64,000 nucleotides of DNA from an uncultured Actinomycetes bacterium (GTDB lineage Bacteria > Actinomycetota > Thermoleophilia > Gaiellales > Gaiellaceae), in assembly GCA_963775695.1 (NCBI GenBank), contig CAVZJU010000003.1, positions 141,050-205,049 on the forward strand, given 5' to 3'. The notes below the pieces were generated by a model. It was not told the DNA's origin, ran no database searches, and worked only from the letters and a program-made list of their open reading frames with translations. Positions 5,589-22,498 of this stretch are shown here, one piece after another. Position numbers and translations under genes: made by a program. Position 1 is the stretch's first letter. Each line of letters opens with the position of its first letter.

Positions 5589-5635
5589 GGCGATGAGGCC
5601 CGCCGCCAACCGCCCGTGAGGCTGATGGCTTCTAC
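5589..5635 (+). promoter_or_regulatory. fluoride riboswitch (crcB motif), copy 1
   Basis: GGCGATGAGGCCCGCCGCCAACCGCCCGTGAGGCTGATGGCTTCTAC. Contains P1 (GGCG/CGCC), the AACCGCC block and GGCTGATGGCTTCTAC, with pseudoknot GAGGCC:GGCTTC. Closely resembles the Thermotoga petrophila crystallised aptamer as I recall it (GGCGAUGAGGCCCGCCCAAACUGCCCUGAAAAGGGCUGAUGGCCUCUAC). Confidence 0.85.
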
Positions 5636-5651
5636 GAACCAGGAGGTGCCT

Positions 5652-5888: not shown

Positions 5889-5898
5889 GCGCGTTTCG

Positions 5899-6363: not shown

Positions 6364-6505
6364 GTTCGTGAGCTGGCCGGACAGCCCGAAGGAGTGCACC
6401 CGCTGCCGCTTCTCGCGCCCTTCGAGACGCCGTCGCGCGACGACGCCGGGTACGAGATCGTCGGCTGCTGCCGAAACCCCCGCATCGGCATGGACCTGTT
6501 CGCTT

Positions 6506-7768
6506 TCAGACGTCGCGATCCGGATCTGATGGAGCCCTGCCCGTCCTTTCGTCCCGGGACACCGGATTGACTGCCCCGCCGGAGAGCACCGAAACCGCCA
6601 TCCATCCGGCTGCGTAGAAGAAGGCCGCAGTCGGGGAGACCAGAGTCCACAGCAGACCGACCGCCGCCGACGAGCCGAAGTCGCCGAACGACTGCACCCC
6701 CCCGAGCACTCCGAAGCCGCTCCCTCGCAGTCGGTCCGGGAGGAGTCGCGCGACGAGCGCCGACTCGGCGGTCTCGGCGAGCCCGATCCCGCCGCCTGCG
6801 AGGAAGAACGGCACGACCAGAAACGGCCACGACTCGAGTGGCAGGGCGAACAGCGTGTACGCAACGACGTAGAGGAGGCCGCCCGTTGCGAACACGATCC
6901 TGGGCCCGACGCGGTCGAGCCAGTGGCCTCCTCCGTAGGCGGCGAACGTGGCGACCAGGTTGTGGCCGGCGTAGATCAGGACCGCGATCGAGGTCGCGGC
7001 GGTGAGGGAGCGCTCTCCGTGGTGGAGGAGCGTCGTCGCCCGGAGGATCAGGAGAGTCGTCGCCATGTTGCCGAGCTCGAAGGCGGAGATGGGCAGCAGC
7101 GGGCGCATCAGACCGGCTTCGCGGAGACCCGAGAAGTCGAAGCGGGCGCGGCGCGGGACAGCGTGGTGGGCGCGCCGCGCCTCGGCCGCTGCCACCGTGA
7201 TCGCCGCCGCCGCGAAGAACCCCGGAACGGCGGAGAGGTAGAGCGTCGGTCGGATCCCGATCCAGGCCACGAGCCCGGCGGCCAGGAGCGGACCGGCGAC
7301 GGCACCGAGATTGTCCCCGGCCCGCTCGAGGCCGAAGGCCCGCCCGTAGGTGGACGGCGAGGCGAGTGAGGCGAGCATCGCGTCGCGGGCCGGCGAGCGC
7401 ACACCTCGGGCCAGCCACGCGCCTGCGCGGAGGAGGCCGACCTGCCAGACCGTGCTCGCGAGTCCGAGGGCTCCGGTGGCTGCCGCGGTGACGACGTAGC
7501 CGCCTGTGGCCAGCCGCAGTCGGCGCGACTCGTCGTTCGCGAGCGGGCCGCTGATGAGCTTCGCGACCCCCGTGAGACCGTCGCTGATCCCTTCGATCAG
7601 CCCCAGGGCGCCCGCGGAGGAGCGGAGGACCACGGTCACGAAGCTCGGCAGCACCGAGGTCGCGATCTCGTGGCCGAAGTCGCTGAAGAAGCTCGCGACG
7701 CCGATCCCGGCGACGCCGCGGGTCAGCCACGAGCGGCGACCCTCGGCGGTCGTCTCGGTCGTCGTCAT
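6506..7768 (-). CDS. MFS transporter
   Basis: ATG at 7768 gives MTTTETTAEGRRSWLTRGVAGIGVASFFSDFGHEIATSVLPSFV... About 12 TM. Lies 25 nt downstream of the MutS-like pair on the same strand. Confidence 0.85.
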   Translation of the reverse strand: MTTTETTAEGRRSWLTRGVAGIGVASFFSDFGHEIATSVLPSFVTVVLRSSAGALGLIEGISDGLTGVAKLISGPLANDESRRLRLATGGYVVTAAATGALGLASTVWQVGLLRAGAWLARGVRSPARDAMLASLASPSTYGRAFGLERAGDNLGAVAGPLLAAGLVAWIGIRPTLYLSAVPGFFAAAAITVAAAEARRAHHAVPRRARFDFSGLREAGLMRPLLPISAFELGNMATTLLILRATTLLHHGERSLTAATSIAVLIYAGHNLVATFAAYGGGHWLDRVGPRIVFATGGLLYVVAYTLFALPLESWPFLVVPFFLAGGGIGLAETAESALVARLLPDRLRGSGFGVLGGVQSFGDFGSSAAVGLLWTLVSPTAAFFYAAGWMAVSVLSGGAVNPVSRDERTGRAPSDPDRDV

Positions 7769-7793
7769 CGCCCGAGCGAGCCGTTCCGCGCGA

Positions 7794-9320
7794 TCAGCGG
7801 GCCGTCCGTGCCTCTGCGGCGTTCGACTCGATTCCGAAGACCCTGCGGTAGGAGTCCTCGCCGTAGCTCGTCGGGAGCGGCTCGCCCTTGACGATACGGA
7901 ATGTCCTTCGGCCGCCGCTCCCGCGTTCGGCACGCAGGAACAGGGTGGTGTCGAGGCGCTGCGCGTGCAGGGTGTGCGCAAGGTCGTAGAGGTGGGTGAC
8001 GAAGAAGACCTTCACCCCGGAGTCGAGCATCGCGCGGATCACCTGGCGGGCGATCTCGGAGCCTTCCCGCTCGTTGGTCGCGGCGAACGACTCGTTGCAG
8101 AGCAAGAGGCAGCCCGGGGTGATCTCATCGGCGATCGCGCTCATCCTGGCGAGCTCCTCGTCGAGCTTCCCGCTCTCCATCGATTCGTCCTCCTCGCGCT
8201 TGTAATGGGTGAAGACGCCGCTGACGACGCCGGCCCGGAGGAATGCAGCGGGGGCGAACAGCCCGCACTGCATCATCAGCTGCGCGATGCCCGTGCTCCG
8301 CAGGAACGTCGACTTGCCGCCCTGGTTCGCGCCCGTGATCATCACGAGCGACCTGCCGTCCGCGTCGACGTCGTTTCCGACCACGCGTGGATCGAGGTGC
8401 AACGAGAGCGCCGCGTCGTACAGGTTCTCGGCGCTGAAAGCAGTGGCATTCCGGTCGACCGGTTCGGGGAAGCAGATCGGCTCGCCCTTCTCCGTCAGCC
8501 TCGCGTGCAGGTTCAGCGCCCCGAGGTAGAAGGCGATCTCGGCCCGCAGGACGGTGAAGAAGCTGACGATGTGGTCGGTCGACTGGCCCACGGCGTTGGC
8601 GACCAGGTTGGTGCCCTTGCCGCGCAGGTCGTCGAGCGCCTTGAAACCCGCCTCGTCCCGCGGCGGGATCGTGAAGCTGCGGCTCGGCGGCCCCTGCCCG
8701 GGGATGCGCTCGAGCCAGCCTCGCCGGCGGGGACGGCGCAGAACGTGCCCCACGCCCCTGTTGGCCCTTCCCAGACGCGCGCTCATGAGCTCTCCGCGGT
8801 CGAACTTCAGCTCCTTCAGGTAGCGGCGGAGAACGCCGAGGTACTCGTCGTCGAGCTCGGCCCGGAGCATGCCGAAGAACCGCTCGAACGCGTCGGAACG
8901 GAAGCTCGGCGCTTCCTCGTCGGCGAGCTTACGCAGGCGCTCGAGGACGTCGACGAGCGCCTGCAGCACCTGCACCGAGCTGTGCAGGATCATCCCCGGC
9001 GACGCGTGCCTGAGGCCGAAGAACAGGCTTGCCTTCCGCGGCGCGTTGACGGCCTCGACGGCCAGGTCGTAGATCGCCCTGACGGTCGCTTCGTGGGCCA
9101 GGCAGTCGGCCAGGACCTGTTGCCGGTACCGGATCTCTTCCCGCGTTCGCAGGTTCGCGAGCAGACCCTTGCCGGCGATCCCGCGCAGGAAATCGTCGCC
9201 CGCGGCCATCGCCTCGACCAGGGTCTCCAGCTCGAGGTCCTGGATCAGCGCGTCGGCGTTGGCCGGTGGCTCGCGCTCGACGTCGAAGTCGCGGTCGGCG
9301 TGCATGAGGAAGACCCTCAT
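7794..9320 (-). CDS. MutS-domain-V ATPase (MutS-related, no mismatch-binding domain), paralog B
   Basis: ATG 9320 overlaps the upstream stop (ATGA). Walker A GANQGGKST. Walker-B region LLLCNESFAATNEREG (NE instead of DE). Confidence 0.85.
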   Translation of the reverse strand: MRVFLMHADRDFDVEREPPANADALIQDLELETLVEAMAAGDDFLRGIAGKGLLANLRTREEIRYRQQVLADCLAHEATVRAIYDLAVEAVNAPRKASLFFGLRHASPGMILHSSVQVLQALVDVLERLRKLADEEAPSFRSDAFERFFGMLRAELDDEYLGVLRRYLKELKFDRGELMSARLGRANRGVGHVLRRPRRRGWLERIPGQGPPSRSFTIPPRDEAGFKALDDLRGKGTNLVANAVGQSTDHIVSFFTVLRAEIAFYLGALNLHARLTEKGEPICFPEPVDRNATAFSAENLYDAALSLHLDPRVVGNDVDADGRSLVMITGANQGGKSTFLRSTGIAQLMMQCGLFAPAAFLRAGVVSGVFTHYKREEDESMESGKLDEELARMSAIADEITPGCLLLCNESFAATNEREGSEIARQVIRAMLDSGVKVFFVTHLYDLAHTLHAQRLDTTLFLRAERGSGGRRTFRIVKGEPLPTSYGEDSYRRVFGIESNAAEARTAR

Positions 9321-10870
9321 GACGCGACCCGCTCCCGCAGCCGTTCGTACGTGAGACCGTACTTCTCGGCGATCGCCCAGGCGTAGGCGCGTCCGTCGGC
9401 CGGCCGGCGGACGAGCTTGAAGGTCCGAAGGGCGGGATTCCCCGGAACGACGGTGCTGACCATGCTGACCGTCGCATCGCTGAGCGACGCGAGCTCGTCC
9501 ACGAAGGTGACGTAGACACCGAGCAGGTCCAGGTCGAGCAATGCCCTCAGCACCTCGGTCCCGATGAAGAGCGCGTCGCTCAGCGTCGTCGACCCGAAGC
9601 TCTCGTTCATGACGACCACGCTCTCCGGGGTCGCCTGCTCGAGGATCTCGTGGACGCGGACGAGCTCGTCGTCGAGCTTGCCGCGGAGCGTCTCGATGTC
9701 CTCCTCGCGCTCGAAGTGGGTGAAGATGCGGTCGGGCAGGAAGAGCCGTGCCGCACTCCCGGGGACGGGGAGGCCGAGACTGGCCAGATGGTGGAGCTGT
9801 CCGAACATGCGGGCGAAGGTCGTCTTGCCCCCGTTGTTCGGCCCGGTGACGACGATGCACCGTTCCGTCCCCCGAAGCTCGAGGTCGTTGCAGACCACCG
9901 TTCCCCGCTCGGAGACGAGCTTGAGCGCCAGGGCGAGGTCGAAGGTCTCCGACGCGGTGGTGTCCTTCGAGCGTGCCGAGACGTGCGGGAAGCAGAATCG
10001 CAGGCCGACCCGCTCGAGCGGCTCGATCAGCTCGAGATACGCGACGTAGAACTGAATCTCGCGGTCGAAGCGGACGATCGCCGGCTCCAGGAAGTCCGCG
10101 TGGCGGCTGCAGAAGGCGTCGAGGGCGCCGAACGGGTCCGGGTTCAGCTGCGCGACCAGGGCCAGGATCTGCCCTTCGACGTGGCTCATGTGCGGCCACT
10201 CGCGCAGCTCGAGGAGGTAGCTCTTCGCGGCCCCCTGCTTGAACCGGGCAAATGTCTGCTCGACCTCCGCGCTGTAGTCCGGTTCGCCCGCATACCCGGT
10301 GACGGTGACGCGGGGCCCGTTGATCTGGACGGCGTAGACGACCTCGCCGAGAGCCTCCTCGACCGTACGCCCCTCGGTCTCGAGCGAGGCAAAGGCGTCC
10401 GAGGCCACGTAGCTCTCGAGACAGGCGGCGAGGGACCGGAGGCCGCGGGATGTGACGTCGAGCGAGGAGAGCTCGTCGGCGAGGGTGCGGACGCTTGCGC
10501 AGTAGGTGCCGGCGGCGTCCAGGAACCAGCGCTCCCTCTCGAAGTGGTACCGCCGGTCGCCCGCCTGCGCCAGGTACGTCCGTGTCGTCCGCATCCGATC
10601 GGCGAACCGGCGCACCGAGGCCATCACCTGGTCGTTGCGCAGGTCGCGGACGACCTCGTGCCGGTAGCGGACCGTCTCCACGTCCCGTTGCGCTGCCTGG
10701 AAGAACGGCTCGAGCTCGTACTCCTCGCGCCCGGCGGTCAGCCCCGCCAGCACCTGGTCGAGGTTCAGGTCGGCGAAGGAGTCCGGCTCGGCGGTCGCCT
10801 CGCCAGCTGGCCGCCCCGGAAAGAGGACTGTTCGGAACTTCCCAGCTTCCCGCCCGTTGCGATCCGCCAT
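9317..10870 (-). CDS. MutS-domain-V ATPase (MutS-related), paralog A
   Basis: 517 aa. Walker A GPNNGGKTT. Walker-B region VVVMNESFGSTT. Start codon is 25 nt downstream of riboswitch copy 2. Confidence 0.85.
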   Translation of the reverse strand: MADRNGREAGKFRTVLFPGRPAGEATAEPDSFADLNLDQVLAGLTAGREEYELEPFFQAAQRDVETVRYRHEVVRDLRNDQVMASVRRFADRMRTTRTYLAQAGDRRYHFERERWFLDAAGTYCASVRTLADELSSLDVTSRGLRSLAACLESYVASDAFASLETEGRTVEEALGEVVYAVQINGPRVTVTGYAGEPDYSAEVEQTFARFKQGAAKSYLLELREWPHMSHVEGQILALVAQLNPDPFGALDAFCSRHADFLEPAIVRFDREIQFYVAYLELIEPLERVGLRFCFPHVSARSKDTTASETFDLALALKLVSERGTVVCNDLELRGTERCIVVTGPNNGGKTTFARMFGQLHHLASLGLPVPGSAARLFLPDRIFTHFEREEDIETLRGKLDDELVRVHEILEQATPESVVVMNESFGSTTLSDALFIGTEVLRALLDLDLLGVYVTFVDELASLSDATVSMVSTVVPGNPALRTFKLVRRPADGRAYAWAIAEKYGLTYERLRERVAS

Positions 10871-10894
10871 CCGCTTCCACCACCAGTAGGTTCG

Positions 10895-10941
10895 GTAGAA
10901 GCCATCAGCCGCTCTGGCGGTTTCAGGCGGGCTTCATCGCC
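10895..10941 (-). promoter_or_regulatory. fluoride riboswitch (crcB motif), copy 2
   Basis: Minus-strand sense: GGCGATGAAGCCCGCCTGAAACCGCCAGAGCGGCTGATGGCTTCTAC. Pseudoknot GAAGCC:GGCTTC is fully Watson-Crick. Confidence 0.85.
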
Positions 10942-11015
10942 GCTGACATCCTACCGCTGGCGGCCGTTCCCACGCCGGTCGCGGCCGGTTCTGCGTGCGG
11001 CTGGATTTCGTTGCA

Positions 11016-11064
11016 GCGCGATGAGGCTCCGCGCCCAACCGCCGCTCCGGCTGATGGCCTCTAC
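11016..11064 (+). promoter_or_regulatory. fluoride riboswitch (crcB motif), copy 3
   Basis: GCGCGATGAGGCTCCGCGCCCAACCGCCGCTCCGGCTGATGGCCTCTAC. Pseudoknot GAGGC:GCCTC. Divergent from copy 2. Confidence 0.8.
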
Positions 11065-11090
11065 CGACTGGCCCTCGAGGGGGAGTGGTG

Positions 11091-11210
11091 ATGGAGGTCA
11101 AGGTTCGGGCAATCGTCGTCTGCGGGAACCGGCTGCTGGTCACCCGCGAACGCCGCCGGGCAGCCGAGCACTCCTCGCTGCCGGGAGGTCGCGTCAAGCG
11201 CTGGGAGTAG
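11091..11210 (+). pseudogene. 39-codon NUDIX-hydrolase N-terminal stub
   Basis: Hand-found ATG 11091 to TAG 11210: MEVKVRAIVVCGNRLLVTRERRRAAEHSSLPGGRVKRWE. This reads like a NUDIX N-terminus up to LPGG, but the NUDIX box (GxxxxxExxxxxxxREUxEExGU) is absent. Confidence 0.35.
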
Positions 11211-11488
11211 CGGATGTCACCTGTGCGGTCGTAGTCCGCGAGGAGCGCTCGGACGCGCGCCGGCGTCTCCGACGGACCGGTGCAGGAGAACGCCAGCCTG
11301 GCGTCGCGACTGCTCTTTCCTGCTCGCCAGAACGACGACATCCAGCGCTCTTCGTCTTCGAAGATCGTCCGGCGGAGCGGACAGCCACTGCGAGCGAAGG
11401 GCTCGACGAGGTCGAGGGCCAGGAAATCGGCCACCGGAGAGGCCTCCCTCCCGGCTCCGGCCCGAGCCAGGTCGTCTCGTGCCTCCGC

Positions 11489-12001
11489 TCAGCCGCCGAG
11501 ACGCGCTGCGTACCGAGCCTGTGCCTGCTCGATCTCTCGCTCCGCTGCCTCGCGACCGGCCCAGCCCTCGATCGCCGTCAACCGCTCGGGCTCGAGCTCC
11601 TTGTAGACGGAGAAGAAATGTGCGATTTCGTCGCGGACGCGCGCGGAGACGTCGTCGAGCTCGTAGACGTCCCGCCACTCGGCATCGTGCAGCGGGACGC
11701 AGAGCACCTTGTCGTCGACGCCGGATTCGTCCCGCATCTGGAAGATGCCGATCGGCCTGACGTCGATTCTGCAGCCGGGGAACGTCGGCTCGCTGACCAG
11801 CACGAGCGCGTCGAGCTGCGCATCCATCTCGCGCTGACGCTGGCCGTGGTCGACCAGCGTGTCCTCCAGGAAGCCGTAGTCGGCCGGGAACACGACCGAC
11901 GAGAACAGGTGCCGATCGAGCCTGAAGACGCCCCTGCCCACATCCCACTCGTACTTGTTCTGGCTCCCCTTCGGCACTTCGACGAAGCAGACGAGCTCCA
12001 C
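11489..12001 (-). CDS. ppa: inorganic pyrophosphatase, family I (atypical metal-site region)
   Basis: VEVPKGSQNKYEWD, FPADYGFLEDTL, IRPIGIFQMRDESGVDDKVLCVP, IAHFFSVYKELE. An insertion and substitutions occur at the DxDxxD segment (see findings). Confidence 0.9.
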   Translation of the reverse strand: MELVCFVEVPKGSQNKYEWDVGRGVFRLDRHLFSSVVFPADYGFLEDTLVDHGQRQREMDAQLDALVLVSEPTFPGCRIDVRPIGIFQMRDESGVDDKVLCVPLHDAEWRDVYELDDVSARVRDEIAHFFSVYKELEPERLTAIEGWAGREAAEREIEQAQARYAARLGG

Positions 12002-12032
12002 GGCTACTCCTTGATCTCCTCGATACTCCGGA

Positions 12033-12470
12033 TCAATCCGCCGGCTCCTCCGATACGACCAGAACGGGTACCTCCGCCGAGGCGATCAGGCGCTCGGCCA
12101 CGCCGTGGAGGAGGAAGCGTCCGGGGCGGCGGCTGCGGTGATGGCCGACGATCACCAGGTCGAACCCGTGCTCACGCGCATAGTCGAGCAGGTCCTCCAC
12201 CGGATGGTCGCCTTCGATGATCTCCTGGCGGACGTCGACCCCGGCACGGTCGGCGCGGTCGAGGAAGTGGTCGAAGGTCTCCCTCAGGTACCTGGTCGCC
12301 GCATCGACCGATTCGGCGCGGTCGGCCTCGGTCTCCGCGTGGGCGGGGGAATGCGCGACGGACGCGGCGACGATGTCCGCCTGGTAGCGGCGGGCCAGAT
12401 CCAGCGCGAGGTCGAATGCACGCGCCGCGGGGCGTGAGCCGTCCCAGGCGATGAGGATTTCCTGGAACAT
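12033..12470 (-). CDS. universal stress protein (UspA family)
   Basis: ATG 12470 overlaps the upstream stop by 1 nt (TGATG). MFQEILIAWDGSRPAARAFDLALDLARRY...DLVIVGHHRSRRPGRFLLHGVAERLIASAEVPVLVV. Confidence 0.85.
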   Translation of the reverse strand: MFQEILIAWDGSRPAARAFDLALDLARRYQADIVAASVAHSPAHAETEADRAESVDAATRYLRETFDHFLDRADRAGVDVRQEIIEGDHPVEDLLDYAREHGFDLVIVGHHRSRRPGRFLLHGVAERLIASAEVPVLVVSEEPAD

Positions 12471-14440
12471 CAGTGACGGAGGGCTGGGATCATGGCGAGT
12501 GCTCCTAGCAGGACGAGAAGGACATACAGCAGGTAGAAGCCGAGCCGGCCCGACTGCAACCGGCGGGTGAAGCCGGAGAGCCGAAGGCCGGCGGCGACGA
12601 GCGGCTCGTACAGGTAGTGCTCGAAGGCCGGCACCACGCGCGTGGTGAGCATGAAGCGCTCCGGCTGCCTCCCGCCCCCCTCGGCGTGGATCGTCCTGCG
12701 AAATCCGTAGACACCGGCCAGGACGACGCGGATCGGATTGGTGTAGGCCTCTGGCGTGTATTGGACGACCGCGATGTCGGGTGCGGCGCCGGAGAGCCAC
12801 ACCGGCGCACGACGCACCGACGGCTTCAGGAGCACGCGGACGAGAAGGGCGGCCGCGATCAGGAACGTCGGGATCGCCAGCGCCAGCCACGTCGGCGAGA
12901 GGACCGAGAAGTTTCCGTAGACGGGGCCGAGGACCAGCGGGTGGGTGACGGCCGTGCCGGCCGGGTCGAAGCCGAGGACGCCGCTCAGCCCTTCGCCGAG
13001 CCAGCGGATCTCCCACGGCGCGGCCGCCCCGAGGAACAGCAGGGTGACGCCGAACGCGACGAAGCCGATGCCTCCCCGGCGGGCCTCGGGGGCCGGCTCC
13101 TGCGGGTGACGTGGACGCCCGAGGAAAATTCCACCGAAGAGGCGGGCGAAGGCGAGCAGCGCGATGCCGGCGGTGAGCGCGACCATCGCGCCACCGAGCG
13201 CCATGAACAGCTGCGCGTCCGAGTCCTTCAGACGAAACCCTTGCAGGAGCGCCTCCAGGGTGAACCACTCGCTGACGAATCCGCCGAATGGAGGCATCGC
13301 CGCAAGTGTGAGGACCGCGAGTCCGAAGCCCAGAGCCGTCCCCGGAAGCTTTGCCGCGAGGCCTCCGAGCGGCGCGGTCGTCCGCTCCCCGGTGGCCTCG
13401 GCGACGCTTTCCGCGCCCAGGAACGCCCCCGCCTTCGCGATTCCGTGCATGATCACGTGCAGGGTCGCGGCGAGGAGTCCCGCCGCCGCCAGCTCCGGCT
13501 CGTTGCTGCCCTGCCCGATGAGGGCGACTCCGAAGCCGAGGAGCGCGATGCCCCCGTGCTCGACGCTCGAGAAGCCGAGGAACCGCTTCACGTCGTCCTG
13601 CACCACCGCGTAGAGGATCCCGGCGATGGCACCCAGACCGCCCAGCACGATCAGCAGCTCTCCCCACCAGAGCGGCGCAGGTGCGAGCGTGCCGTAGACG
13701 AGGCGCCAGAGCCCGTAGAAGCCGCCGTTGAAGGCGACGGCGATCGTCGCCGCCGTCGCAGCGGGAGCAGCCTGGTACAGACCCGGGAGCGGCACCTGGA
13801 AGGGAAGCAACCCGATCTTGGTGCCGAAGCCGACGAGCAGGAGGACGAACGCGACGTCGCGGGTCGTGCCGAGGCCGGCCGCGGCGTGCTGCCAGGCGCT
13901 GAACTCGAAGCTTCCGGTCTGCCCGTAGAGCAGCCCGAAGGCGGCGAGGATCGCAGCACCGCCGATCTTGTTCACCGCCGAGGCGAAGTAGCCGGCCGCG
14001 AGCGCAGCCGGACGGTCGCGATCCAGGCTGCCGAGGATGTAGAGGCAGACGCTGAGGGTCTCCCAGGCGAGGAGGAAGACGAACCCCTGATTGGCGCCGA
14101 GGACGGCGGCGAGCGCAAGGATGACGAGGCTGTGGAGGGTCGCGGGCGACCGGCGAGTCGGACGCTCGGCGAGAGCGACGGACACTGCAGCGGCCGTCCC
14201 GCCGACCAGCGCGAGGAAGATGCCGCTGAGCCGGTCGGCGACGAGCGCGGAGGGGCCGAATCCGAGCCACGTCCCGAGACCCACGCGAGCTTCCGACCAC
14301 CCCCCCGCGCTGACGACTCCGACTGCGCAGAGGAGCGCGGATGCGACGGCCGCCGCACCCAGGGCCGGGCGAGGCCGGAGCAGGGCGAGTCCGGCTGCCC
14401 CGCAGAGCACGAGGAGGGCTGCTGCGAAGACGCCGTTCAC
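12470..14440 (-). CDS. HyfB/HycC-like (NuoL-like) antiporter-type membrane subunit
   Basis: 656-aa polytopic protein with proton-antiporter-like blocks (GFGTKIGLLPFQVPLPGLY, FLGFSSVEHGG). Confidence 0.85.
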   Translation of the reverse strand: MNGVFAAALLVLCGAAGLALLRPRPALGAAAVASALLCAVGVVSAGGWSEARVGLGTWLGFGPSALVADRLSGIFLALVGGTAAAVSVALAERPTRRSPATLHSLVILALAAVLGANQGFVFLLAWETLSVCLYILGSLDRDRPAALAAGYFASAVNKIGGAAILAAFGLLYGQTGSFEFSAWQHAAAGLGTTRDVAFVLLLVGFGTKIGLLPFQVPLPGLYQAAPAATAATIAVAFNGGFYGLWRLVYGTLAPAPLWWGELLIVLGGLGAIAGILYAVVQDDVKRFLGFSSVEHGGIALLGFGVALIGQGSNEPELAAAGLLAATLHVIMHGIAKAGAFLGAESVAEATGERTTAPLGGLAAKLPGTALGFGLAVLTLAAMPPFGGFVSEWFTLEALLQGFRLKDSDAQLFMALGGAMVALTAGIALLAFARLFGGIFLGRPRHPQEPAPEARRGGIGFVAFGVTLLFLGAAAPWEIRWLGEGLSGVLGFDPAGTAVTHPLVLGPVYGNFSVLSPTWLALAIPTFLIAAALLVRVLLKPSVRRAPVWLSGAAPDIAVVQYTPEAYTNPIRVVLAGVYGFRRTIHAEGGGRQPERFMLTTRVVPAFEHYLYEPLVAAGLRLSGFTRRLQSGRLGFYLLYVLLVLLGALAMIPALRH

Positions 14441-15207
14441 GCTGCTGCCTCCCGGGTGACGACGCCGGACGCCAGAAGCAGTCCGTGCAGGACCGCGATC
14501 GGGCTCGGCGGAGATCCCGGGACGTAGACGTCGACCGGGAGGACCCTGTCGACGCCGCCGGCCACTTCACCTGTCTGGGCTGCGAGACCGCCGGAGCAGG
14601 CGTCGGTACCGGCGGCGACGACCGCCTTGGGGTGCGGCATGACCTCGAATGCGCGAAGGAGGGGTGCCTCCATCGAGGGGGTGACTCCACCGGTGACGAG
14701 GAGGATGTCGGCGTGCCTCGGAGACAGCGTGAAGAAGAGGCCGAGGCGCTGCATGTCGTAGAAGGGGTTCGTCAGCGCGGCGATCTCCCACTCCTCGGCT
14801 CCGTCCGAGCCGGCGTCGACGTGCCTGACGTGGATCGAGCGGCGGAGCGTGCGCGACTGCTGTCCGAGGCTGCGACGCGGCTCGCCGGTCGCGCCTTCGG
14901 GATCGTTCACGACGAGCGCGCCGCGCCGGCGTGCTGCCGTCTCGTACTCGGGCTCGAATTCGAAGCGGCTCGGATCGGCGGCGACGCAGGCGCCGCAGAG
15001 GATGCAGCGGCCGCGGTCGACGGAGACGCGGCCGCCGCTGCTCCTGATCGCTCCGGTCGGGCAGACCGCTTCCAGACCTGCCGGCGCCGGCGTGTCGCTC
15101 CTGAGACCGACCCGGCCGCGAAAGCCGGGAGGGGCCGCCTCAGGACGCCGCGGGTATCGGGTCGTGACGATGCCGCGATGCAGGCCGCGGGGGATCCACT
15201 CCAGCAT
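14437..15207 (-). CDS. fusion of a HycF-like ferredoxin remnant and a HycG/NuoB-like small subunit; most FeS cysteines missing
   Basis: N-terminal part retains VCPTG...CILCGACVAADP. C-terminal part is NuoB-like (LSPRHADILLVTGGVT...PKAVVAAGTDACSGG...LPVDVYVPGSPPSP). It has GSDGAEEWE and PGSPP where the canonical motifs are GSCxxCE and PGCPP. Confidence 0.75.
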   Translation of the reverse strand: MLEWIPRGLHRGIVTTRYPRRPEAAPPGFRGRVGLRSDTPAPAGLEAVCPTGAIRSSGGRVSVDRGRCILCGACVAADPSRFEFEPEYETAARRRGALVVNDPEGATGEPRRSLGQQSRTLRRSIHVRHVDAGSDGAEEWEIAALTNPFYDMQRLGLFFTLSPRHADILLVTGGVTPSMEAPLLRAFEVMPHPKAVVAAGTDACSGGLAAQTGEVAGGVDRVLPVDVYVPGSPPSPIAVLHGLLLASGVVTREAAA

Positions 15208-16700
15208 CAGCGATCCGCTCCTGCCGGCGAGAGCCCGAAGCTGTGCTCGATGAACGAGAAGTCGGTGAGCACGTCGCCGCGGAAGCTGGCTGCGAAGAGC
15301 GGCCAGTTACGAAGCGACGGCGAGGAGATCCGCACCGTTCGCAGCCGACCCTCGTCCACCTCGACCCAGTAGACGAGCTCGCCCATCGGCGCCTCGGCCC
15401 AGCCGAACGCCGCTCCACTCTCGGCGGGAAGCTCGACCGTCAGCTCGCCGTCGTCCTTCTCGTCGCGCTCGAGCGACTGCCGGATCAGGTGGACACTCAC
15501 GCGGATCTCGTCGAGGCGGACCTCGAGACGGGCCATCGCGTCACACTCCTCGGCCGTGACCATCCGGAAGCCCAACCTCCGGTACGCGCCGTAGGGGCGC
15601 TCGAAGCGCGCATCGGTCGGGATCCCCGATCCGCGCGCGACGGGCCCGACGCCCGCATGGGCGTCGACCGTGGCGGGTTCGAGTGTGCCGCTTCCGATCA
15701 GACGGTCGGTGAACGAGGGTGTCCTCAGCAGGAGCCGTCGATCCCGGCGCACGTCGCGCTCGAGCTCGCTGAGAAACCGTCGTATCTCGCGGATCGGAAG
15801 CTGGGGCCCTCCGGCGACACCGCCGGTGACGATGACGCCTCGTCCGAAGCGACTGCCGCAGAGCCGCGCCCGCAGACGCATGACCTGCTCCTTGAGGATC
15901 CCGAATCGGGCGACCGCCACGGACAGGGCGGCGTCCTCTGCGAGCCGGGTGGCAACGTCGAGATGGTTCGCGATCCGCTCGAGCTCCGCGTGTACGACCC
16001 GCCAAAGCTGCGCCTTCGGCGGCGGTTCGACGCCGAGCGCACGCTCGACCGCGTGCGAGAAGGCGCACGCATGCGCGACCGACGCAATGCCGGCTACGCG
16101 CTCGGCGACCGTCGTCCCGTCCCCGGGGGTGCGACCGTTGAAGCGGCTCTCGAGCCCCCGCCGCTTGAAATACGGCCGGACCTCCAGTGCCAGGACGTCT
16201 TCGCCGCCCGTCTCGATCACGTACTGGATCGACTCGAAGACTCCGGAACGGATCGGCCCGTAGGGGATGACGAACGTCCCCTCGCCCTCCACCCGGCGGC
16301 GAAGGTTGTCCGGATCGGGGCGGACGGCCGGGGCCAGGTCCGGATGCCCGAGAGGAATGAGACCGTGGAGGTCGTGCAACTCCCGCTCCGGGAAGCGAAA
16401 TGCCGGTGACATCAGTGCAAGTGACGGAAACGACGACGTCCGGTCGATCGACGCCAGGAGGGCGACCAGCTGTCCGCGCACCGCGAAGGCGACGGCGAGG
16501 GACCGCTCCGGCTCGTCCGTGACGAACATCGCGACGAGCCGGGCGCGACGTTCGAGCAGGAGCGCCGCCGCCCGGTCGATCACTCCGATCGGCAGTCGTA
16601 GGCGCTGCTCGCCGAGCGGAGCCGGTTCGCCGACTGCGCGAAAGCGACCGTCGAGGAACTCGTGTGCGTCGCCTGCGAGCATTGCGTTCTCGGCGGTCAT
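15207..16700 (-). CDS. HycE/HyfG-like (NuoC-NuoD fusion type) 'large subunit' lacking both NiFe CxxC motifs
   Basis: ATG 16700 overlaps the upstream stop (ATGA). AERVAGIASVAHACAF replaces R-x-C-G-x-C-x-x-x-H. The C-terminus ...SFIEHSFGLSPAGADR replaces D-P-C-x-x-C-x-x-R. Only 3 isolated Cys in 497 aa. Confidence 0.85.
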   Translation of the reverse strand: MTAENAMLAGDAHEFLDGRFRAVGEPAPLGEQRLRLPIGVIDRAAALLLERRARLVAMFVTDEPERSLAVAFAVRGQLVALLASIDRTSSFPSLALMSPAFRFPERELHDLHGLIPLGHPDLAPAVRPDPDNLRRRVEGEGTFVIPYGPIRSGVFESIQYVIETGGEDVLALEVRPYFKRRGLESRFNGRTPGDGTTVAERVAGIASVAHACAFSHAVERALGVEPPPKAQLWRVVHAELERIANHLDVATRLAEDAALSVAVARFGILKEQVMRLRARLCGSRFGRGVIVTGGVAGGPQLPIREIRRFLSELERDVRRDRRLLLRTPSFTDRLIGSGTLEPATVDAHAGVGPVARGSGIPTDARFERPYGAYRRLGFRMVTAEECDAMARLEVRLDEIRVSVHLIRQSLERDEKDDGELTVELPAESGAAFGWAEAPMGELVYWVEVDEGRLRTVRISSPSLRNWPLFAASFRGDVLTDFSFIEHSFGLSPAGADR

Positions 16701-18160
16701 CGGGCGGCGAGCTGGTCGGCGGCGTGTCCGAGGAGCGTCGAGAGTCCGCTCGGAACGTGCAGGCCGAGGCCGACGACGACGACGAGGCAGGCTGCCATCC
16801 CGGCGACCATCGTCCAACTCGCCTCGCCGCGAGGGGCCCCGGGCGCTGCAGGCGAGAACACCATCCTGCCGGCGTGCCAGACGACCCCGAGGAACGCCAC
16901 GTTGACGAAGACGAGCAGCATCGTCACCCAGACGTACCCGGGGGTCGCGAAACCCCCGCTGACGATCTGGAACTCGCTTCGGAAGATGCCCGAGACGGGC
17001 AGACCGCTGAGCGCGAGGACTGCCACGAGAAACATCGGGCCGGAGACCGGCAGGGCTTGGGCCGCACCCTGCACGGAGTCGATCTCCTTGCTCCCGAAGC
17101 GTCTCAGGATCGAACCCGTGCCGAAGAAGGCCATCCCCTTCGCGGCGGCGTGGTTGAGCACGTGCAGGAGTGCGCCGGCGACCGCGATGCGCACGCCGAA
17201 GCCGATGCCGACCGCGATCACGCCCATGTGCTCGATCGTCGAGTAGGCGAGGAGCCGCTTGTAGTTCTCCTGCCGGAGAACGAAGAGCGCCGCCACGAGC
17301 AGCGATGCGGTTCCGAACACGAGCAGGACGTGGCGCGGAAAGTCCTGTCCGACTGCGAGGGCGGTCACCTGGTAGAAGCGGAGGATGGCGTAGAGGGCAT
17401 TCGCGAGCAGCGCCCCGGAGAGGAGCGCCGACACGGGGCTCGGTGCCTCGCTGTGCGCGTCCGGGAGCCAGGCGTGGAGCGGGGCGAAGCCCGCCTTGGT
17501 GCCGAATCCGACCACCGCCAGGAGGAACGCGATCTCGACCTCGGTCGCCGGCAGCTGCCCGCCGACCGAGAGATATCGCGTGAACCGCGGGATGTACGCC
17601 TGGCCGAGTGCGTTCGTTCCCGAGGCGTACAGGATGATCACCGCGAGGAGGGCGATGCCGAGCCCCACGGACGCGATCAGGACGTACTTCCACGCCGCCT
17701 CGAGCGCCGCGTCCGTCCGTTCCAGCGCGACCAGGAGAACCGAGACGATCGTGGTCAGCTCGACCGCCACCCACAGCGTGGCGAAGTCGTTCATCAGTGG
17801 GACGAGCAGCATCGTCCAGCCGAAGAGGTTGAGGTAGCCGAAGTACTTGCGGGCGAACGAGTCACGGCCGTGGTGATGCGCTCCCGCCCGCAGGAATCCG
17901 ATCGAGAAGACGCTCCCCGCCGCATACAGGAAGCTGCTTGCGAGAAGGAACACCGCTCCAAGGGAATCGAGGCGGAGCCACCCGCTGGCGGTCGTCAGAG
18001 GCACGTCATTGCGAACAGAGACAGCGGCGCTGAGCGCGAGTGCAAAGCAGGCACCCCCCGCTGCGGCGGTCGCGAGCTCGGCCGCACGCGGTGAGCCGAG
18101 AAAGGCAACCGCTGAGCCGGCCAGCGGTACGAGGACCAGGGCGATGAGGACGGCGCTCAT
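16697..18160 (-). CDS. HyfF/HyfD-like (NuoM/N-like) antiporter-type membrane subunit
   Basis: 487 aa. GFGTKAGFAPLHAWLPDAHSEAPSPVSALLSG and LAYSTIEHMG are typical of NuoM/N/MrpD-type subunits. Confidence 0.85.
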   Translation of the reverse strand: MSAVLIALVLVPLAGSAVAFLGSPRAAELATAAAGGACFALALSAAVSVRNDVPLTTASGWLRLDSLGAVFLLASSFLYAAGSVFSIGFLRAGAHHHGRDSFARKYFGYLNLFGWTMLLVPLMNDFATLWVAVELTTIVSVLLVALERTDAALEAAWKYVLIASVGLGIALLAVIILYASGTNALGQAYIPRFTRYLSVGGQLPATEVEIAFLLAVVGFGTKAGFAPLHAWLPDAHSEAPSPVSALLSGALLANALYAILRFYQVTALAVGQDFPRHVLLVFGTASLLVAALFVLRQENYKRLLAYSTIEHMGVIAVGIGFGVRIAVAGALLHVLNHAAAKGMAFFGTGSILRRFGSKEIDSVQGAAQALPVSGPMFLVAVLALSGLPVSGIFRSEFQIVSGGFATPGYVWVTMLLVFVNVAFLGVVWHAGRMVFSPAAPGAPRGEASWTMVAGMAACLVVVVGLGLHVPSGLSTLLGHAADQLAAR

Positions 18161-18161
18161 C

Positions 18162-19790
18162 TCAGCCGCGAAGCCGGTTCAGCACGTCAGTCGTGACCGA
18201 GGTGCGCTGGACGCTGAAGTACTGGACGAGGAGGACGAAGACCAGGAGCCCGATGAAGACGTCGAAGAGCAGGAGCAGGGCGAGGATCAGGGGAAGGCTG
18301 GGGGCGATGACCAGGGCCGCGAGGGTGACCCCGTTCTCGAGCACGAGGAAGCCGATCACCTGCGACGGCGCGTAGGGCCGGAGGATCATCAGGAGCAGTG
18401 CGACCAGCACGATCGCAACCGCAATGCCGAGCGCCTCCAGCGGGAGCGCTCCCTGGTGATCGAGATGGAGCCGTGAGAGGGCGATGAAGCTGAAGCTGGA
18501 GAGGACGATGCCGAGCAGCGCTGCGCTCGGCACCCGCACCGTCGACGGGACGCGCATGGACACGTCCAGCCTCGTAATGGTCGCCCCGATCGCGAGCGGG
18601 ATGGCGATCGTCTTGAAGGCGATCGTGATCGCCCCGATCACCCACAGATCGGCGTGGTGGAGCTTCGCCGCCGCTGCGAACGCGACGATTGCGACAGCGG
18701 CGGAACCGAGGCCGTACAGCCGCAGCTGCCCCCGGATGTCCTGCGTGCGTAGGAGTGCGAACTCGAGCAACAGGACGGTGACTGCGACGACGCTCGCGAT
18801 GCCGCCGAACACGGTGAGGTGGACGGTCCCGTACTGTCGCTGGAGCACGAACGTGATCACGGCCAGGACGGCGAAGAGAAAGCCGGCCACGGTGAACTCG
18901 GGGATCTTGTAAAGGCGCAGCTTCGCGAACGACGACTCGATGACGACGATCGCGGCTCCGACGACGAGCGCCTTCCCGAACAGAATCGCGATCGCCAGGA
19001 GGACGCTGTCGAGCCGCCGGTCCCCCGCCAGGCCCCACGGCGCGGTGAGGACGTTGGCGAGGATGACGAAGAGGATCATCTGCTTCATCGACGAGCCCCA
19101 CTTGAGCAGGGCGTAGCCGGGGCCGGAGTGCTCGAGCGTCCGGCCTTCCTCGATCATCCCGAACTCCAGGGTGGCCCCGTGGTTCTCCAGTGGGATCCGC
19201 CCGGTCTCGGAGATGACGACCATGAAGAACGCTGCCGCGGCGAGAAGATGAGCGGGCCGGAAGACCTCGACCGCGGACGACTTGAGCGTCGCGGCGAAGG
19301 CGTAGGGGAGGTCGGTGCCCGTGATGAGCGCGACCGAGAAGATGACGAAGATGATCGTCGGCTCGCCGAGCGCGCCGAACGTGCGGAGCCGGCTCGAGCC
19401 GAGCTGGGTATACGGGCTGCCGCTGTCGATAGCGGCCAGCGAGACGGCATAGCTTGCGAGCCCGAGCACGAAGCCGCCGCCGAGGATGTCCCCCATGTAG
19501 GCCGGTTGGGGCGGGAAGTCCGTCAGCACCGGGATCAGGAGCGGGACAACGCAGTAGCAGGCGAAGGCGACGTAGGGAGCGATCCGGAACACCGGCCCTG
19601 CCCCGTCCGGAAGGACCGTCTCCTTCCGGAAGAACTTGGCGATGTCGTGGTAGGGCTGGAGCAGCCTGGGCCCGTGCCGTCCCTGCACCAGGGCCTCGGC
19701 CCGGGCGATGACACCGGTGACCAGCGGCGAGACGAGCAGGATCGTCCCCAGCTGGAAAGCCTGGATCAGTCCGTCGCTCAGCTGCGGCAT
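18162..19790 (-). CDS. HycD/HyfC-like (NuoH-like) subunit fused to a HyfE-like (NuoK-like) membrane module
   Basis: 542 aa. N-terminal ~300 aa: LVSPLVTGVIARAEALVQGRHGPRLLQPYHDIAKFFRKE...EFGMIEEGRTLEHSGPGYALLKW (HycD-like). C-terminal ~220 aa are multi-TM and HyfE-like. First gene after riboswitch copy 4. Confidence 0.8.
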   Translation of the reverse strand: MPQLSDGLIQAFQLGTILLVSPLVTGVIARAEALVQGRHGPRLLQPYHDIAKFFRKETVLPDGAGPVFRIAPYVAFACYCVVPLLIPVLTDFPPQPAYMGDILGGGFVLGLASYAVSLAAIDSGSPYTQLGSSRLRTFGALGEPTIIFVIFSVALITGTDLPYAFAATLKSSAVEVFRPAHLLAAAAFFMVVISETGRIPLENHGATLEFGMIEEGRTLEHSGPGYALLKWGSSMKQMILFVILANVLTAPWGLAGDRRLDSVLLAIAILFGKALVVGAAIVVIESSFAKLRLYKIPEFTVAGFLFAVLAVITFVLQRQYGTVHLTVFGGIASVVAVTVLLLEFALLRTQDIRGQLRLYGLGSAAVAIVAFAAAAKLHHADLWVIGAITIAFKTIAIPLAIGATITRLDVSMRVPSTVRVPSAALLGIVLSSFSFIALSRLHLDHQGALPLEALGIAVAIVLVALLLMILRPYAPSQVIGFLVLENGVTLAALVIAPSLPLILALLLLFDVFIGLLVFVLLVQYFSVQRTSVTTDVLNRLRG

Positions 19791-19823
19791 CCGTCCCGAC
19801 GTCTCCTTGCCCTCGACTACGAG

Positions 19824-19891
19824 CTAGAAGCCATCAGCCGTCGGAACGGCGGTTCGGAGCGGGGGCCGCTCCCGCCAGAGCTTCATCTGGC
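19824..19891 (-). promoter_or_regulatory. fluoride riboswitch (crcB motif), copy 4, with an extra inserted hairpin
   Basis: Minus-strand sense: GCCAGATGAAGCTCTGGC-GGGAGCGGCCCCCGCTCC-GAACCGCCGTTCCGACGGCTGATGGCTTCTAG. Same core blocks. An 18-nt GC hairpin is inserted between P1 and the AACCGCC block. Confidence 0.8.
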
Positions 19892-20034
19892 GTCGCCAGC
19901 GTAGCGAATCGCCGACGCGGTCCGGACGGTACCGGACACGCAGGACGCAGACCTGGAACCCGAACTCCAGGCGCGCCGCCACCGGCCGAGACGGTTGGAC
20001 CGGCCCTGTTCGGCTAGGCTGATTCCACACCGGT

Positions 20035-20080
20035 CGCGATGAGGCCCGCGCTCAACCGCCTTCGGGCTGATGGCTTCTGT
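20035..20080 (+). promoter_or_regulatory. fluoride riboswitch (crcB motif), copy 5
   Basis: CGCGATGAGGCCCGCGCTCAACCGCCTTCGGGCTGATGGCTTCTGT. Divergent from copy 4. Followed by GGGAGG and ATG 20115. Confidence 0.8.
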
Positions 20081-20114
20081 GTCTTCTTCGGGTTCGCTCC
20101 AGGGAGGCGGACGT

Positions 20115-20540
20115 ATGAGTCATCTCGCGCCGGATTCAGCCGGAAGTGCCCAGGTCGAGATCGACGTCGACCCGGCTGGGCTCGACGAGCTTCGCGGCCG
20201 GGCAGGCGACGCAGCACCGACCGCGGACGAGGACCTGCTCCGATACCTCGTGTACCTGGGCGCCGGCTACCTGGAGACCGAGGCAGTCTCTGCGGCTGCC
20301 CCGAGCGTCCACGAGGCCTATGCGCGCCTCGACCGCATGCATGCTGCCGTGGAGGGGCACTCGTCGGTCCTGAGTTTCCACTACGGCGAGTCGGCGCGAG
20401 AGTTCGCCGAAGAGGAGAGGGCACACGCGGCTCACGAGCGAAGCGCCGGAGCCTACGAGGGGCTTGTCGAGAAGCTCGAGGCGGAGATCGCAGCCCGGGA
20501 AAAGCGAGTCGTCAGGCTGAAACGAGCGCTCGAGCAATGA
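20115..20540 (+). CDS. hypothetical protein (acidic, C-terminal coiled-coil-like), first gene after riboswitch 5
   Basis: ATG 20115 is preceded by GGGAGGCGG. Product MSHLAPDSAGSAQVEIDVDPAGLDELRG...LVEKLEAEIAAREKRVVRLKRALEQ. High GC3. No family recognised. Confidence 0.6.
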   Translation: MSHLAPDSAGSAQVEIDVDPAGLDELRGRAGDAAPTADEDLLRYLVYLGAGYLETEAVSAAAPSVHEAYARLDRMHAAVEGHSSVLSFHYGESAREFAEEERAHAAHERSAGAYEGLVEKLEAEIAAREKRVVRLKRALEQ

Positions 20541-21067
20541 GGACATCGCTTCTGACGGCCGATCTCGACGAGTTCGAGCGGACCGGGGCCGACGTCGGAT
20601 CCGCGTTTGCCCGTGGCGCTCGCTCCCTCGGCTGCCGGCAACTCCACGAGCGCCTGCTTGAACCCTTCAGCACGGAGGCGGGGCTGACCGAGTTGGTCGA
20701 TCTCTATGCCGAGGCCTACGCCCGGATGCATCTGCTGCGGTTCGGCTACATGAGCAAGGCCGAGGCGTATGCCGAATCGAAGGAACGGTACGACGCCGTC
20801 GACGACGTGCTCTTCGACCTACGGCGGCACGTCGTCCCTGCTCTTCGAACCCGTCTGGCGGAGGTCAGGCAGCGTGAGGCGCAGCTCGTGGCGGAGGCCG
20901 AGGCGCGCGGCATCCCGACGGCTGAGATAGGCCCGATCGTCCCCGCGGATCGAGCGCAGGTGACGTCGGTTCGCCCAGGCGAAGGCCCTCCACAGCGCCG
21001 GACGCTTACACCCCTCGCTCCACGGCCTACGCGGCTGCAACGGTTGCGGCAACTGTTGCGTCGATGA
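20537..21067 (+). CDS. hypothetical protein
   Basis: ATG 20537 overlaps the upstream stop (ATGA). Product MRTSLLTADLDEFERTGADVGSAFARG...YMSKAEAYAESKERYDAVDDVLFDLRRHVVPALRTRLAEVRQREAQL. The C-terminal Arg/Pro-rich tail is uncertain. No family recognised. Confidence 0.55.
   Translation: MRTSLLTADLDEFERTGADVGSAFARGARSLGCRQLHERLLEPFSTEAGLTELVDLYAEAYARMHLLRFGYMSKAEAYAESKERYDAVDDVLFDLRRHVVPALRTRLAEVRQREAQLVAEAEARGIPTAEIGPIVPADRAQVTSVRPGEGPPQRRTLTPLAPRPTRLQRLRQLLRR

Positions 21068-22498
<1,431 letters not shown>

Follow-up and report, generated by a model that had tools for sequence, protein, structure and literature searches.

We find that a fluoride riboswitch in the genome of an uncultured Actinomycetes bacterium of the family Gaiellaceae stands upstream of seven genes, five of which are predicted to encode a membrane complex that is related to the hydrogenases without being one. 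The operon lies on the minus strand of the stretch that we analysed, a window of 64,000 nt (NCBI GenBank assembly GCA_963775695.1, contig CAVZJU010000003.1, positions 141,050 to 205,049), to which all coordinates refer unless a related locus is named. The five subunits of the complex that the riboswitch would control correspond to HyfC::HyfE, HyfF, HyfG, HyfH::HyfI and HyfB, and the complex appears to be derived from hydrogenase-4/formate hydrogenlyase-2. Judged from its sequence it is not a hydrogenase; it cannot reduce protons at a Ni-Fe site and has no complete electron path, and what it retains is two antiporter-like channels, a NuoH-like/HyfE-like connecting module and one predicted iron-sulfur (FeS) site. 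We lean towards the reading that the operon of this soil actinobacterium is fluoride-inducible and that this complex, which is of the Ehr type, moves protons, or protons together with cations, thereby offsetting the stress caused by HF and F-.

The seven genes run head to tail from 19790 down to 11489 and are tightly packed. The first, G1 (18162-19790, 542 aa), joins a NuoH/HycD-like domain (PF00146, residues 16-315, 5e-33) to a HyfE-like membrane domain (NF008556 HyfE, residues 333-542, 2e-9), and its top match in the PDB is HycD (7z0s_D, 4e-40). G2 (16697-18160, 487 aa) is a HyfF/MrpD/NuoM-like antiporter-like subunit (PF00361, 1e-51; HyfF models, 3e-110) with MbsH and MbhH as its top PDB matches, and G3 (15207-16700, 497 aa) is a NuoC-NuoD/HycE-like 'large subunit' in which Complex1_30kDa, NiFeSe_Hases and Complex1_49kDa domains are recognized and the Ni-Fe ligands are missing. 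G4 (14437-15207, 256 aa) consists of a HyfH/NuoI-like domain (Fer4 families, residues 47-91) fused to a HyfI/NuoB-like domain (PF01058, Oxidored_q6, residues 139-244), and G5 (12470-14440, 656 aa) is a HyfB/HycC/NuoL-like antiporter-like subunit (PF00361, 1e-43; HyfB model, 2e-107). These are followed by a universal stress protein, Usp (G6, 12033-12470, 145 aa; PF00582, 3e-28), and a family I inorganic pyrophosphatase (G7, 11489-12001, 170 aa; PF00719, 4e-46). G1 and G2 are separated by 1 nt (18161), G2 and G3 share the ATGA at 16697-16700, the next two junctions overlap by 1 nt (15207) and 4 nt (14437-14440), the G6 start lies over the G5 stop in a TGATG at 12470, and a gap of 31 nt (12002-12032) precedes G7.

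This arrangement of seven tightly coupled genes, and the assignment of the subunits, had been proposed in an initial annotation made from the sequence. Its coordinates stand, and independent gene calls on a JGI contig that is 98% identical (L091) gave the same lengths (542, 487, 497, 256, 656, 145 and 170 aa). Domain assignment by Pfam and NCBIfam likewise agrees with the proposed subunits. HyfF and HyfB give the top NCBIfam matches among the operon subunits; the equivalog scores are all far under their cut-offs, and none of the subunits can thus count as an orthodox member of Hyf, Hyc or Nuo. The HyfC and HyfE halves, as well as the HyfH and HyfI halves, are separate genes in distant relatives, which confirms G1 and G4 as fusions. 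An exact look-up of the G3 sequence of the window returned no record.

The loss of the catalytic site is most evident in G3. Among solved structures the best match is HycE (7z0s_E, 1.5e-45), followed by MbhL and Nqo4, and MbsL (6u8y_L) is a detectable homologue. The sequences RVCGICG of HycE and RMCGICS of MbhL align to RVAGIAS in G3, and the C-terminus of G3 is SFGLSPAGADR, with LSPAGADR where hydrogenases have DPCxxC, so that the four Ni-Fe cysteines of the group-4 enzymes (RxCGxC and DPCxxC) are missing from G3. The protein stops at R497, the Arg that forms the processing site in HycE, and has no C-terminal extension for an endopeptidase. The same holds among relatives, for which we collected 10 genome loci and 80 metagenome loci: in these 90 loci positions 203, 206, 491 and 494 are occupied by A or E, by A, by S or T, and by G, respectively, and Cys is absent from all four in the window and in the related loci except at position 206 in a single one of the 90. 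Nor is G3 a complex I subunit in the ordinary sense, as Y87 and H38 of the Nqo4 quinone site align to G204 and F155 and the ligands of cluster N2 are absent. On this evidence G3 is classed as Ehr-type, that is, as a group-4 large-subunit homologue without Ni/Fe-coordinating residues, which is the identity that the initial annotation had given it.

An association between fluoride riboswitches and genes of this kind has been in print since 2010, when the crcB motif was described with 'genes encoding formate hydrogen lyase' (Weinberg et al. 2010, PMC2864571), and a 2024 review places formate hydrogenlyase among the commonest linked enzymes and reads the link as formate oxidation (PMC11139923, citing Baker et al. 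2012). The initial annotation did not mention this association. Our locus resembles the published cases in having the riboswitch in the 5' untranslated region of hyc/hyf-like genes, and in the partners of the regulon (mutS-like genes, enolase, pyrophosphatase, Usp, HAD and crcB). It differs in that the published genes were taken as real formate hydrogenlyase, whereas here the Ni-Fe and proximal-cluster ligands are absent and the proteins form a distinct Cys-less clade. We give next to no credence to a genuine formate hydrogenlyase, or other group-4 [NiFe]-hydrogenase, that consumes cytoplasmic protons, even though homologues carry names such as 'formate hydrogenlyase subunit 5' or 'Ni,Fe-hydrogenase III large subunit', the best PDB matches are HycE and HycD, and the review favors this interpretation. 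At the level of sequence such an enzyme is refuted by the replacement of the Ni-Fe cysteines in the window and the related loci and by the loss of the proximal ligands, of which one non-conserved Cys (C204 of G4) is left. The end of G3 at R497, the low equivalog scores and the position of G3 apart from the Cys-bearing clade all argue the same way. As the initial annotation had stated, maturation, formate dehydrogenase and electron-input genes are missing from the gene models tested: no hyp, hycI, fdh or electron-input gene (FdhF/HycB, HyfA/HycB-type) was found among the calls on L091 within 10 kb or among the 20 largest other open reading frames (ORFs) of the window. The evidence thus corrects the reading of the 2024 review, in which the linked genes encode a formate-oxidising hydrogenlyase.

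The small-subunit region tells a more mixed story. The proximal-cluster region of G4 reads DAGSDGAEE...GTDACSGG...PGSPP, with DAGSDGAEE in place of DxGxCxxCE and PGSPP in place of PGCPP, so that the four cysteines of a proximal cluster are not all there. Three of the four ligand positions have no Cys, D135 and S232 being invariant instead, and the sole remaining one, C204, is present in 36 of 73 loci. On the other hand, C49 (in AVCP) and C68, C71 and C74 (in CILCGAC) are kept in 83-85 of 85 loci. By the ligand-swapping rule of 2x[4Fe-4S] ferredoxins, these four residues make up the complete set for one cluster, and the HyfH-like domain of G4 is therefore predicted to retain one complete [4Fe-4S] site. 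The complex had initially been described as cofactor-less, with its redox ligands gone. This is correct for the Ni-Fe and proximal ligands, but the conserved four-Cys site makes 'cofactor-less' too strong a term. Riboswitch-linked distant relatives show a gradient of FeS ligand loss, in that one (L095) has ligands for all three clusters, two (L093 and L098) have three of the four proximal ligands, and one (L096) is like the window.

The retained site raises the possibility that the complex is still a redox-driven pump, in which the [4Fe-4S] cluster would take electrons, for example from ferredoxin, and pass them to an acceptor or cofactor in a remodelled HyfG/HyfI pocket. Such a pump would resemble MBX/MBS, in which redox chemistry was retained after the loss of Ni-Fe, and could provide a proton-motive force insensitive to fluoride when glycolysis and the ATPases are inhibited. 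Besides the conservation of the four-Cys site, this would fit with the 38 charged residues of G3 that 95% or more of the loci have in common, among them E156, the counterpart in the alignment of a conserved Glu in HycE and MbhL; with the cluster ligands of L095, L093 and L098; and with the detectable homology to MbsL. We nevertheless consider it unlikely. In the clade of the window the proximal cluster has at most one ligand, which is not conserved, and D135 and S232 are invariant at other ligand positions. From the established geometry of complex I, the remaining cluster would be too distant from the pocket for electron transfer. Furthermore, no HyfA/HycB-type or other electron-input gene is found in the operon or within 10 kb, and the Tyr and His of the NuoD quinone site have become Gly and Phe.

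The membrane arm, for its part, is well preserved. Residues E134, K222, H229, D234, H236, K341 and E396 of G2 and residues E127, K208, K336 and E391 of G5 are invariant across the loci, and among them are the residues typical of Mrp-type subunits (Glu in transmembrane helix (TM) 5, Lys in TM7 and Lys or Glu in TM12), namely E134/K222/K341/E396 in G2 and E127/K208/K336/E391 in G5. In both subunits the invariant set comprises a Glu in TM5, a Lys in TM7, a Lys in TM8 and a Glu in TM12. Three antiporter-like subunits had originally been counted. The residues of G2 and G5 are indeed intact, but the count is better given as two antiporter-like subunits (G2 and G5) and one NuoH-like subunit (G1). With G1 (PF00146) and both G2 and G5 (PF00361) in one operon, the antiporter-like membrane subunits are co-encoded as in other Ehr complexes. 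None of the small Mrp subunits MrpB, C, E, F and G is represented, the HyfE-like domain being the only small membrane module of the operon; the complex may work like Mrp but is no member of that family.

Pairwise ratios of nonsynonymous to synonymous substitution rates (dN/dS) against L001 and L002 lie between 0.06 and 0.22 for G1-G6, which, taken together with the invariant antiporter residues, indicates that the complex is functional and not a relic. The idea of a decaying hydrogenase that persists through its linkage to Usp and the pyrophosphatase would account for the lost catalytic ligands, and a paralogous copy in one of the relatives (L010) does appear fragmented. We find it highly improbable, and consider it excluded by the selection and conservation data: apart from the low dN/dS and the invariant functional residues, some 90 loci over a range of 44-98% identity have unbroken reading frames, and it is directly upstream of G1, and not of the Usp or pyrophosphatase gene, that the riboswitch is conserved.

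The link between the operon and the riboswitch extends well beyond the window. The closest named relatives are metagenome-assembled genomes of Gaiellaceae (class Thermoleophilia), Gaiellales and Solirubrobacterales, and a sister clade includes Acidimicrobiales and the cultured Aciditerrimonas ferrireducens, whose clade member is WP_248105975.1. The metagenome loci were found in a search seeded by an alignment of 11 sequences, an alignment of 35 sequences having no stretch that was conserved enough. The order G1-G2-G3-G4-G5 is kept in all 90 loci. In the clade whose G3 identity is 52% or more, the gene after G5 is Usp in all loci, and a second clade shows this too; the pyrophosphatase has the same position in L001 and L091 and elsewhere is found with its own riboswitch or on the other side of the operon. 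The linkage was counted in the 44 loci whose sequence reaches 160 nt or more upstream of G1, and all 44 have a riboswitch there on the same strand, 41 found by a structural scanner at 35-116 nt upstream and three (L030, L048 and L084) recognized by eye. The fluoride-riboswitch control that the initial annotation had proposed is thus repeated upstream of the same operon in every locus that could be evaluated. Four distant Cys-less operons with 36-45% identity in G3 (L093, L095, L096 and L098) have a riboswitch in the same place, and these are above the Rfam gathering score. The contigs of a further three (L092, L094 and L097) are too short to include the leader, and that of L099 is cut within the first gene of the operon, so that it is not an informative control.

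At two loci compared from outside this group the riboswitch was not seen. No fluoride riboswitch was found at a Cys-bearing Hyf-type operon of Desulfitobacterium hafniense, and none, even at E<=1, at L101, the one locus examined from a second Cys-less clade. A neighbour-joining tree of 118 representatives (50% identity; no bootstrap values) unites the 20 Cys-bearing sequences in one clade, and the 98 Cys-less representatives, G3 of the window included, fall outside it. The window and all riboswitch-positive lineages lie within a Cys-less clade of 62 representatives, and the riboswitch-negative L101 lies within a Cys-less clade of 36. Within the Cys-less clade of the window the link to the riboswitch is thus nearly obligate. 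The genes of the L101 operon are differently ordered and come with an ArsR-type regulator, and one sequence in the protein cluster of this operon bears the name Candidatus Binatia. The operon is regulated differently from those of the riboswitch-linked clade and probably has a different function as well. It is preceded, at 2280-3803 of that locus, by an ArsR-family helix-turn-helix gene, a pentapeptide-repeat gene and an AT-rich palindrome of 34 nt (AATAAGTATATTCG...CGAATATACTTATT), and its NuoB-like subunit has all four proximal-cluster cysteines.

A few observations on individual relatives may be added. L010 (6510-14401) duplicates the entire operon within the metagenome-assembled genome that also contains L003 (MFD04944.bin.2.116); its riboswitch looks intact, and its tblastn matches are fragmented in G1, G2, G3 and G5, either from pseudogenisation of a paralogue or from indel errors in long reads. 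L093 has three fluoride riboswitches above the gathering score (1467-1528, 5506-5569 and 13389-13449), of which one precedes a Cys-rich ORF of 87 aa located just ahead of the NuoH-like gene, and another a small ORF followed by a sulfatase and an MFS transporter. In L099, a Cys-bearing and hence true hydrogenase relative, a beta-carbonic anhydrase gene (7247-7837) comes directly after the small-subunit gene.

The riboswitch of the operon (copy 4 of the window, 19823-19891, minus strand) was identified by direct reading, by the structural scanner and by Rfam model RF01734. All structural elements of RF01734 are present between 19891 and 19823, that is, the P1 loop GAUGNNGNN, the AAC linker, P2, CUGAUGG and the pseudoknot strand, and in its P1 loop, AAC-P2-CUGAUGG core and pseudoknot complementarity copy 4 is like the canonical aptamer. 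P1 (19891-19874) reads GCCAG-AUGAAGCU-CUGGC, with the conserved loop AUGAAGCU; the core reads G-AAC-C, followed by P2 (GCCGUUCCGACGGC, 19850-19837); and the 3' tail (19836-19823, UGAUGGCUUCUAGC) contains the pseudoknot strand GGCUUC, complementary to the P1 loop. The difference lies in J1/2, the linker that joins P1 to P2, where a hairpin of 18 nt (GGGAGCGGCCCCCGCUCC, 19873-19856) is inserted; it is GC-rich, with a stem of 7 bp (GGGAGCGG-CCC...) and a predicted energy of -13.1 kcal/mol. The Rfam model takes this hairpin for P1, and for that reason copy 4 reaches 21.4 bits (E=0.0015 in a search of 601 nt), which is under the gathering score of 34.

The extra hairpin had already been seen by the initial annotation, and direct reading, the scanner and covariation in the relatives all bear it out. 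Among the relatives the insert measures 13-48 nt and folds in every case, and its sequence differs by lineage, with stems such as GGAGCGG/CCGCUCC, GGAGGGA/UCCCUCC, GGAGGC/GCCUCC, GGGGG/CCCCC and GGGC/GCCC. RNAalifold finds compensatory changes in four of six insert pairs. As the pairing is kept despite the differing sequences, the insert is a structural element under selection. A third clade of leaders has an ordinary P1-P2 linker of 1-3 nt and no insert, and the orthologous leaders without an insert do reach the gathering score.

The scanner on which these counts depend demands all elements of the aptamer; it finds the five copies of the window and gave no hits in five shuffles of 975 kb. A stricter version that required a P2 of 4 bp found two of the five, and a simple regular expression missed leaders with the P2 sequence CCGCG. 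MAFFT alignments of the aptamers were dropped as a basis for a covariance model, as they placed the inserted hairpin on P1 of the canonical copies, which is the same error that Rfam makes. Insert-bearing riboswitches in L004 (3355-3420, insert of 18 nt), L035 (851-934, 34 nt) and L066 (242-334, 48 nt) were not reported at the Rfam gathering threshold, whereas canonical copies in the same search were. This points to a systematic under-annotation of insert-bearing fluoride riboswitches at that threshold, and the fluoride regulons of Actinomycetota would be under-annotated as a consequence.

Fluoride riboswitches are known as ON switches. In the expression platform of copy 4 (19788-19822, minus strand) a Shine-Dalgarno sequence AAGGAG (19808-19803) is followed by a segment CGUCGGGAC (19801-19793) that can oppose P2 and by the start codon of G1 (19790-19788). 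In the minimum-free-energy fold of the ligand-free leader, as well as in the consensus fold of 11 leaders, the P2 strand pairs with CGUCGGGAC, and the 3' tail of the aptamer pairs with the Shine-Dalgarno sequence. In L012 both sides of three platform pairs have changed in a compensatory manner. We suggest that copy 4 is most likely a translational ON switch: as long as fluoride is absent, the ribosome-binding region would be paired with the P2 strand and the 3' tail, and once fluoride is present P2 and the pseudoknot would be locked and the ribosome-binding site freed.

What, then, could an Ehr-type complex do under the control of fluoride? HF acidifies the cytoplasm as it enters, the export of F- by Fluc and CLC-F depends on the proton-motive force, and among the classes of riboswitch-linked genes the Na+/H+ antiporters rank second in frequency (PMC11139923). 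We propose that HF diffuses into the cell and F- leaves via Fluc/CrcB, which would result in a proton load and a loss of membrane potential, and that the complex would shift protons, or swap cations for protons, to restore both pH and membrane potential. Alongside it, the extra pyrophosphatase and enolase could compensate for enzymes inhibited by fluoride. Such an ion-translocating role, which the initial annotation had also suggested, would be a reasonable fit with the invariant antiporter residues and with the crcB genes that share the operon in some relatives. In about ten of the related loci the operon extends into crcB-crcB-DUF190 or DegV-crcB-DUF190-crcB, which lie on the same strand and have no further riboswitch before them.

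Several points weigh against this proposal. There is no evident source of energy for uphill export of protons: an electron-input subunit is missing, and so is any electron path that leads further than the single cluster. Unlike true Mrp antiporters, the complex is also without subunits of the MrpB/C/E/F/G type. Both the strictly kept [4Fe-4S] site and the many invariant charges of G3 and G4 suggest that the peripheral arm has a specific task, which ion translocation leaves unexplained, and L095 with its ligands for three clusters indicates that the ancestral function may have been redox-driven. Moreover, both the regulation and the transport are argued from sequence, and the scan for promoters and terminators gave no call (no promoters; 2 terminator-like sites where 2.7 would be expected).

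A different possibility is that the complex acts on fluoride directly: F-, HF or a metal-fluoride would be bound in the former Ni-Fe/N2 pocket or in the membrane arm and be exported or neutralised together with the Fluc channels that relatives encode downstream. This could explain the near-obligate linkage to the riboswitch across a large Cys-less clade and the fusion of the operon with crcB pairs and DUF190, and it is in line with the window, in whose annotated region no crcB or CLC-F gene is seen. We regard it as quite improbable, as no fluoride-binding motif is known or detectable and the residues that replace the cysteines vary among clades (A or E at position 203 of G3; A, C or T at position 132 of G4). 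The presence of both the complex and Fluc in many loci points to roles that complement and do not merely duplicate each other, and to our knowledge antiporter-like subunits serve solely as conduits for cations or protons. In a broader version of this idea, one major branch of the Cys-less Ehr complexes would be a dedicated machine for fluoride defence in which the remodelled peripheral arm and the antiporter-like arm together drive an energy-coupled step of F-/HF detoxification; this step could be the direct handling of F- or HF, or an extrusion of protons mechanically tied to export by Fluc. We find this version rather improbable as well. If true, however, a dedicated fluoride defence would give the complex I superfamily a new function, one that goes beyond generic pH homeostasis. 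Of the readings considered we thus continue to favor the movement of protons, with or without other cations, as a response to fluoride.

The complex is best seen as a variant of known systems. Ehr complexes have been defined as hydrogenase relatives without Ni/Fe ligands and of unknown function (PMC6349859, citing Marreiros et al. 2013), and the complex in the window shares with them its group-4 homology, the missing Ni/Fe residues and the antiporter-like subunits. The Ehr complexes of that study have proposed formate dehydrogenase partners and keep their electron-transfer subunits, whereas the present one lacks a redox partner and a proximal cluster, contains the fusions HyfC::HyfE and HyfH::HyfI and is regulated, as we propose, by fluoride. 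With hydrogenase-4/FHL-2 (HyfA-J) and the formate hydrogenlyase FHL-1 (PDB 7Z0S) of Escherichia coli it shares the set and order of subunits HyfC, E, F, G, H, I and B; it differs in having no HyfA, HyfD, HyfJ or FdhF, no Ni-Fe site, no proximal cluster, one of the two HyfH clusters and no maturation genes that we could find. MBS/MBX (6U8Y) and MBH (6CFW) of Pyrococcus furiosus are likewise complex-I-like relatives of group 4, and it is their subunits MbsH and MbhH that G2 matches best among solved structures. In MBS, too, the Ni-Fe site has been lost (PMC6349859). MBS and MBH nevertheless keep the full chain of three clusters and a Mrp-type Na+ module (MrpB/C/E/F/G-like), both of which are missing here.

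In a literature search that lay largely outside subscription journals, we found no paper that links Ehr complexes to fluoride or that names riboswitch-linked formate hydrogenlyase genes as nickel-free and Ehr-type. What the present analysis adds is the correction from formate hydrogenlyase to Ehr, the retained FeS site, the near-obligate link across a clade together with the crcB fusion, and the class of riboswitches with a hairpin that the Rfam threshold misses. Ehr-type complexes are widespread and annotated as hydrogenase, formate hydrogenlyase or NADH dehydrogenase, and the link to fluoride gives them a physiological context that can be tested. We also point out that an ion-translocating arm that was kept after most of the redox chain was lost amounts to a natural experiment on the coupling of the two arms.

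The operon is part of what we call a fluoride island, with five fluoride riboswitches within 15 kb in the region 5580-22498. The four besides copy 4 are canonical and reach the Rfam gathering score (5580-5641, plus strand; 10889-10950, minus; 11008-11070, plus; 20026-20086, plus). The first of them precedes a HAD hydrolase gene (about 5650-6363, plus strand), and the second would control two MutS-domain-V proteins and an MFS transporter (10870 down to about 6506, minus strand). The riboswitch at 20026-20086 stands before a unit of small proteins and enolase (20115-22498, plus strand); between it and enolase are two overlapping genes for proteins of 141 aa (20115-20540) and 176 aa (20537-21067), which have no Pfam match, are called in the same way on L091 and would belong to the fluoride regulon. 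Enolase, Usp, CrcB, DUF190, NUDIX, pyrophosphatase, DUF6062 and DegV are the recurrent neighbours among the related loci. The only ORF after the riboswitch at 11008-11070 is a fragment of 39 codons (11092-11211, plus strand) that resembles the N-terminus of a NUDIX hydrolase, and an ORF on the opposite strand (10934-11434) resembles the N-terminus of DUF6062. NUDIX and DUF6062 genes are intact, riboswitch-linked neighbours in L012, L016, L025 and L096, and the segment 11008-11434 looks like a decayed module in which a well-scoring riboswitch has been retained.

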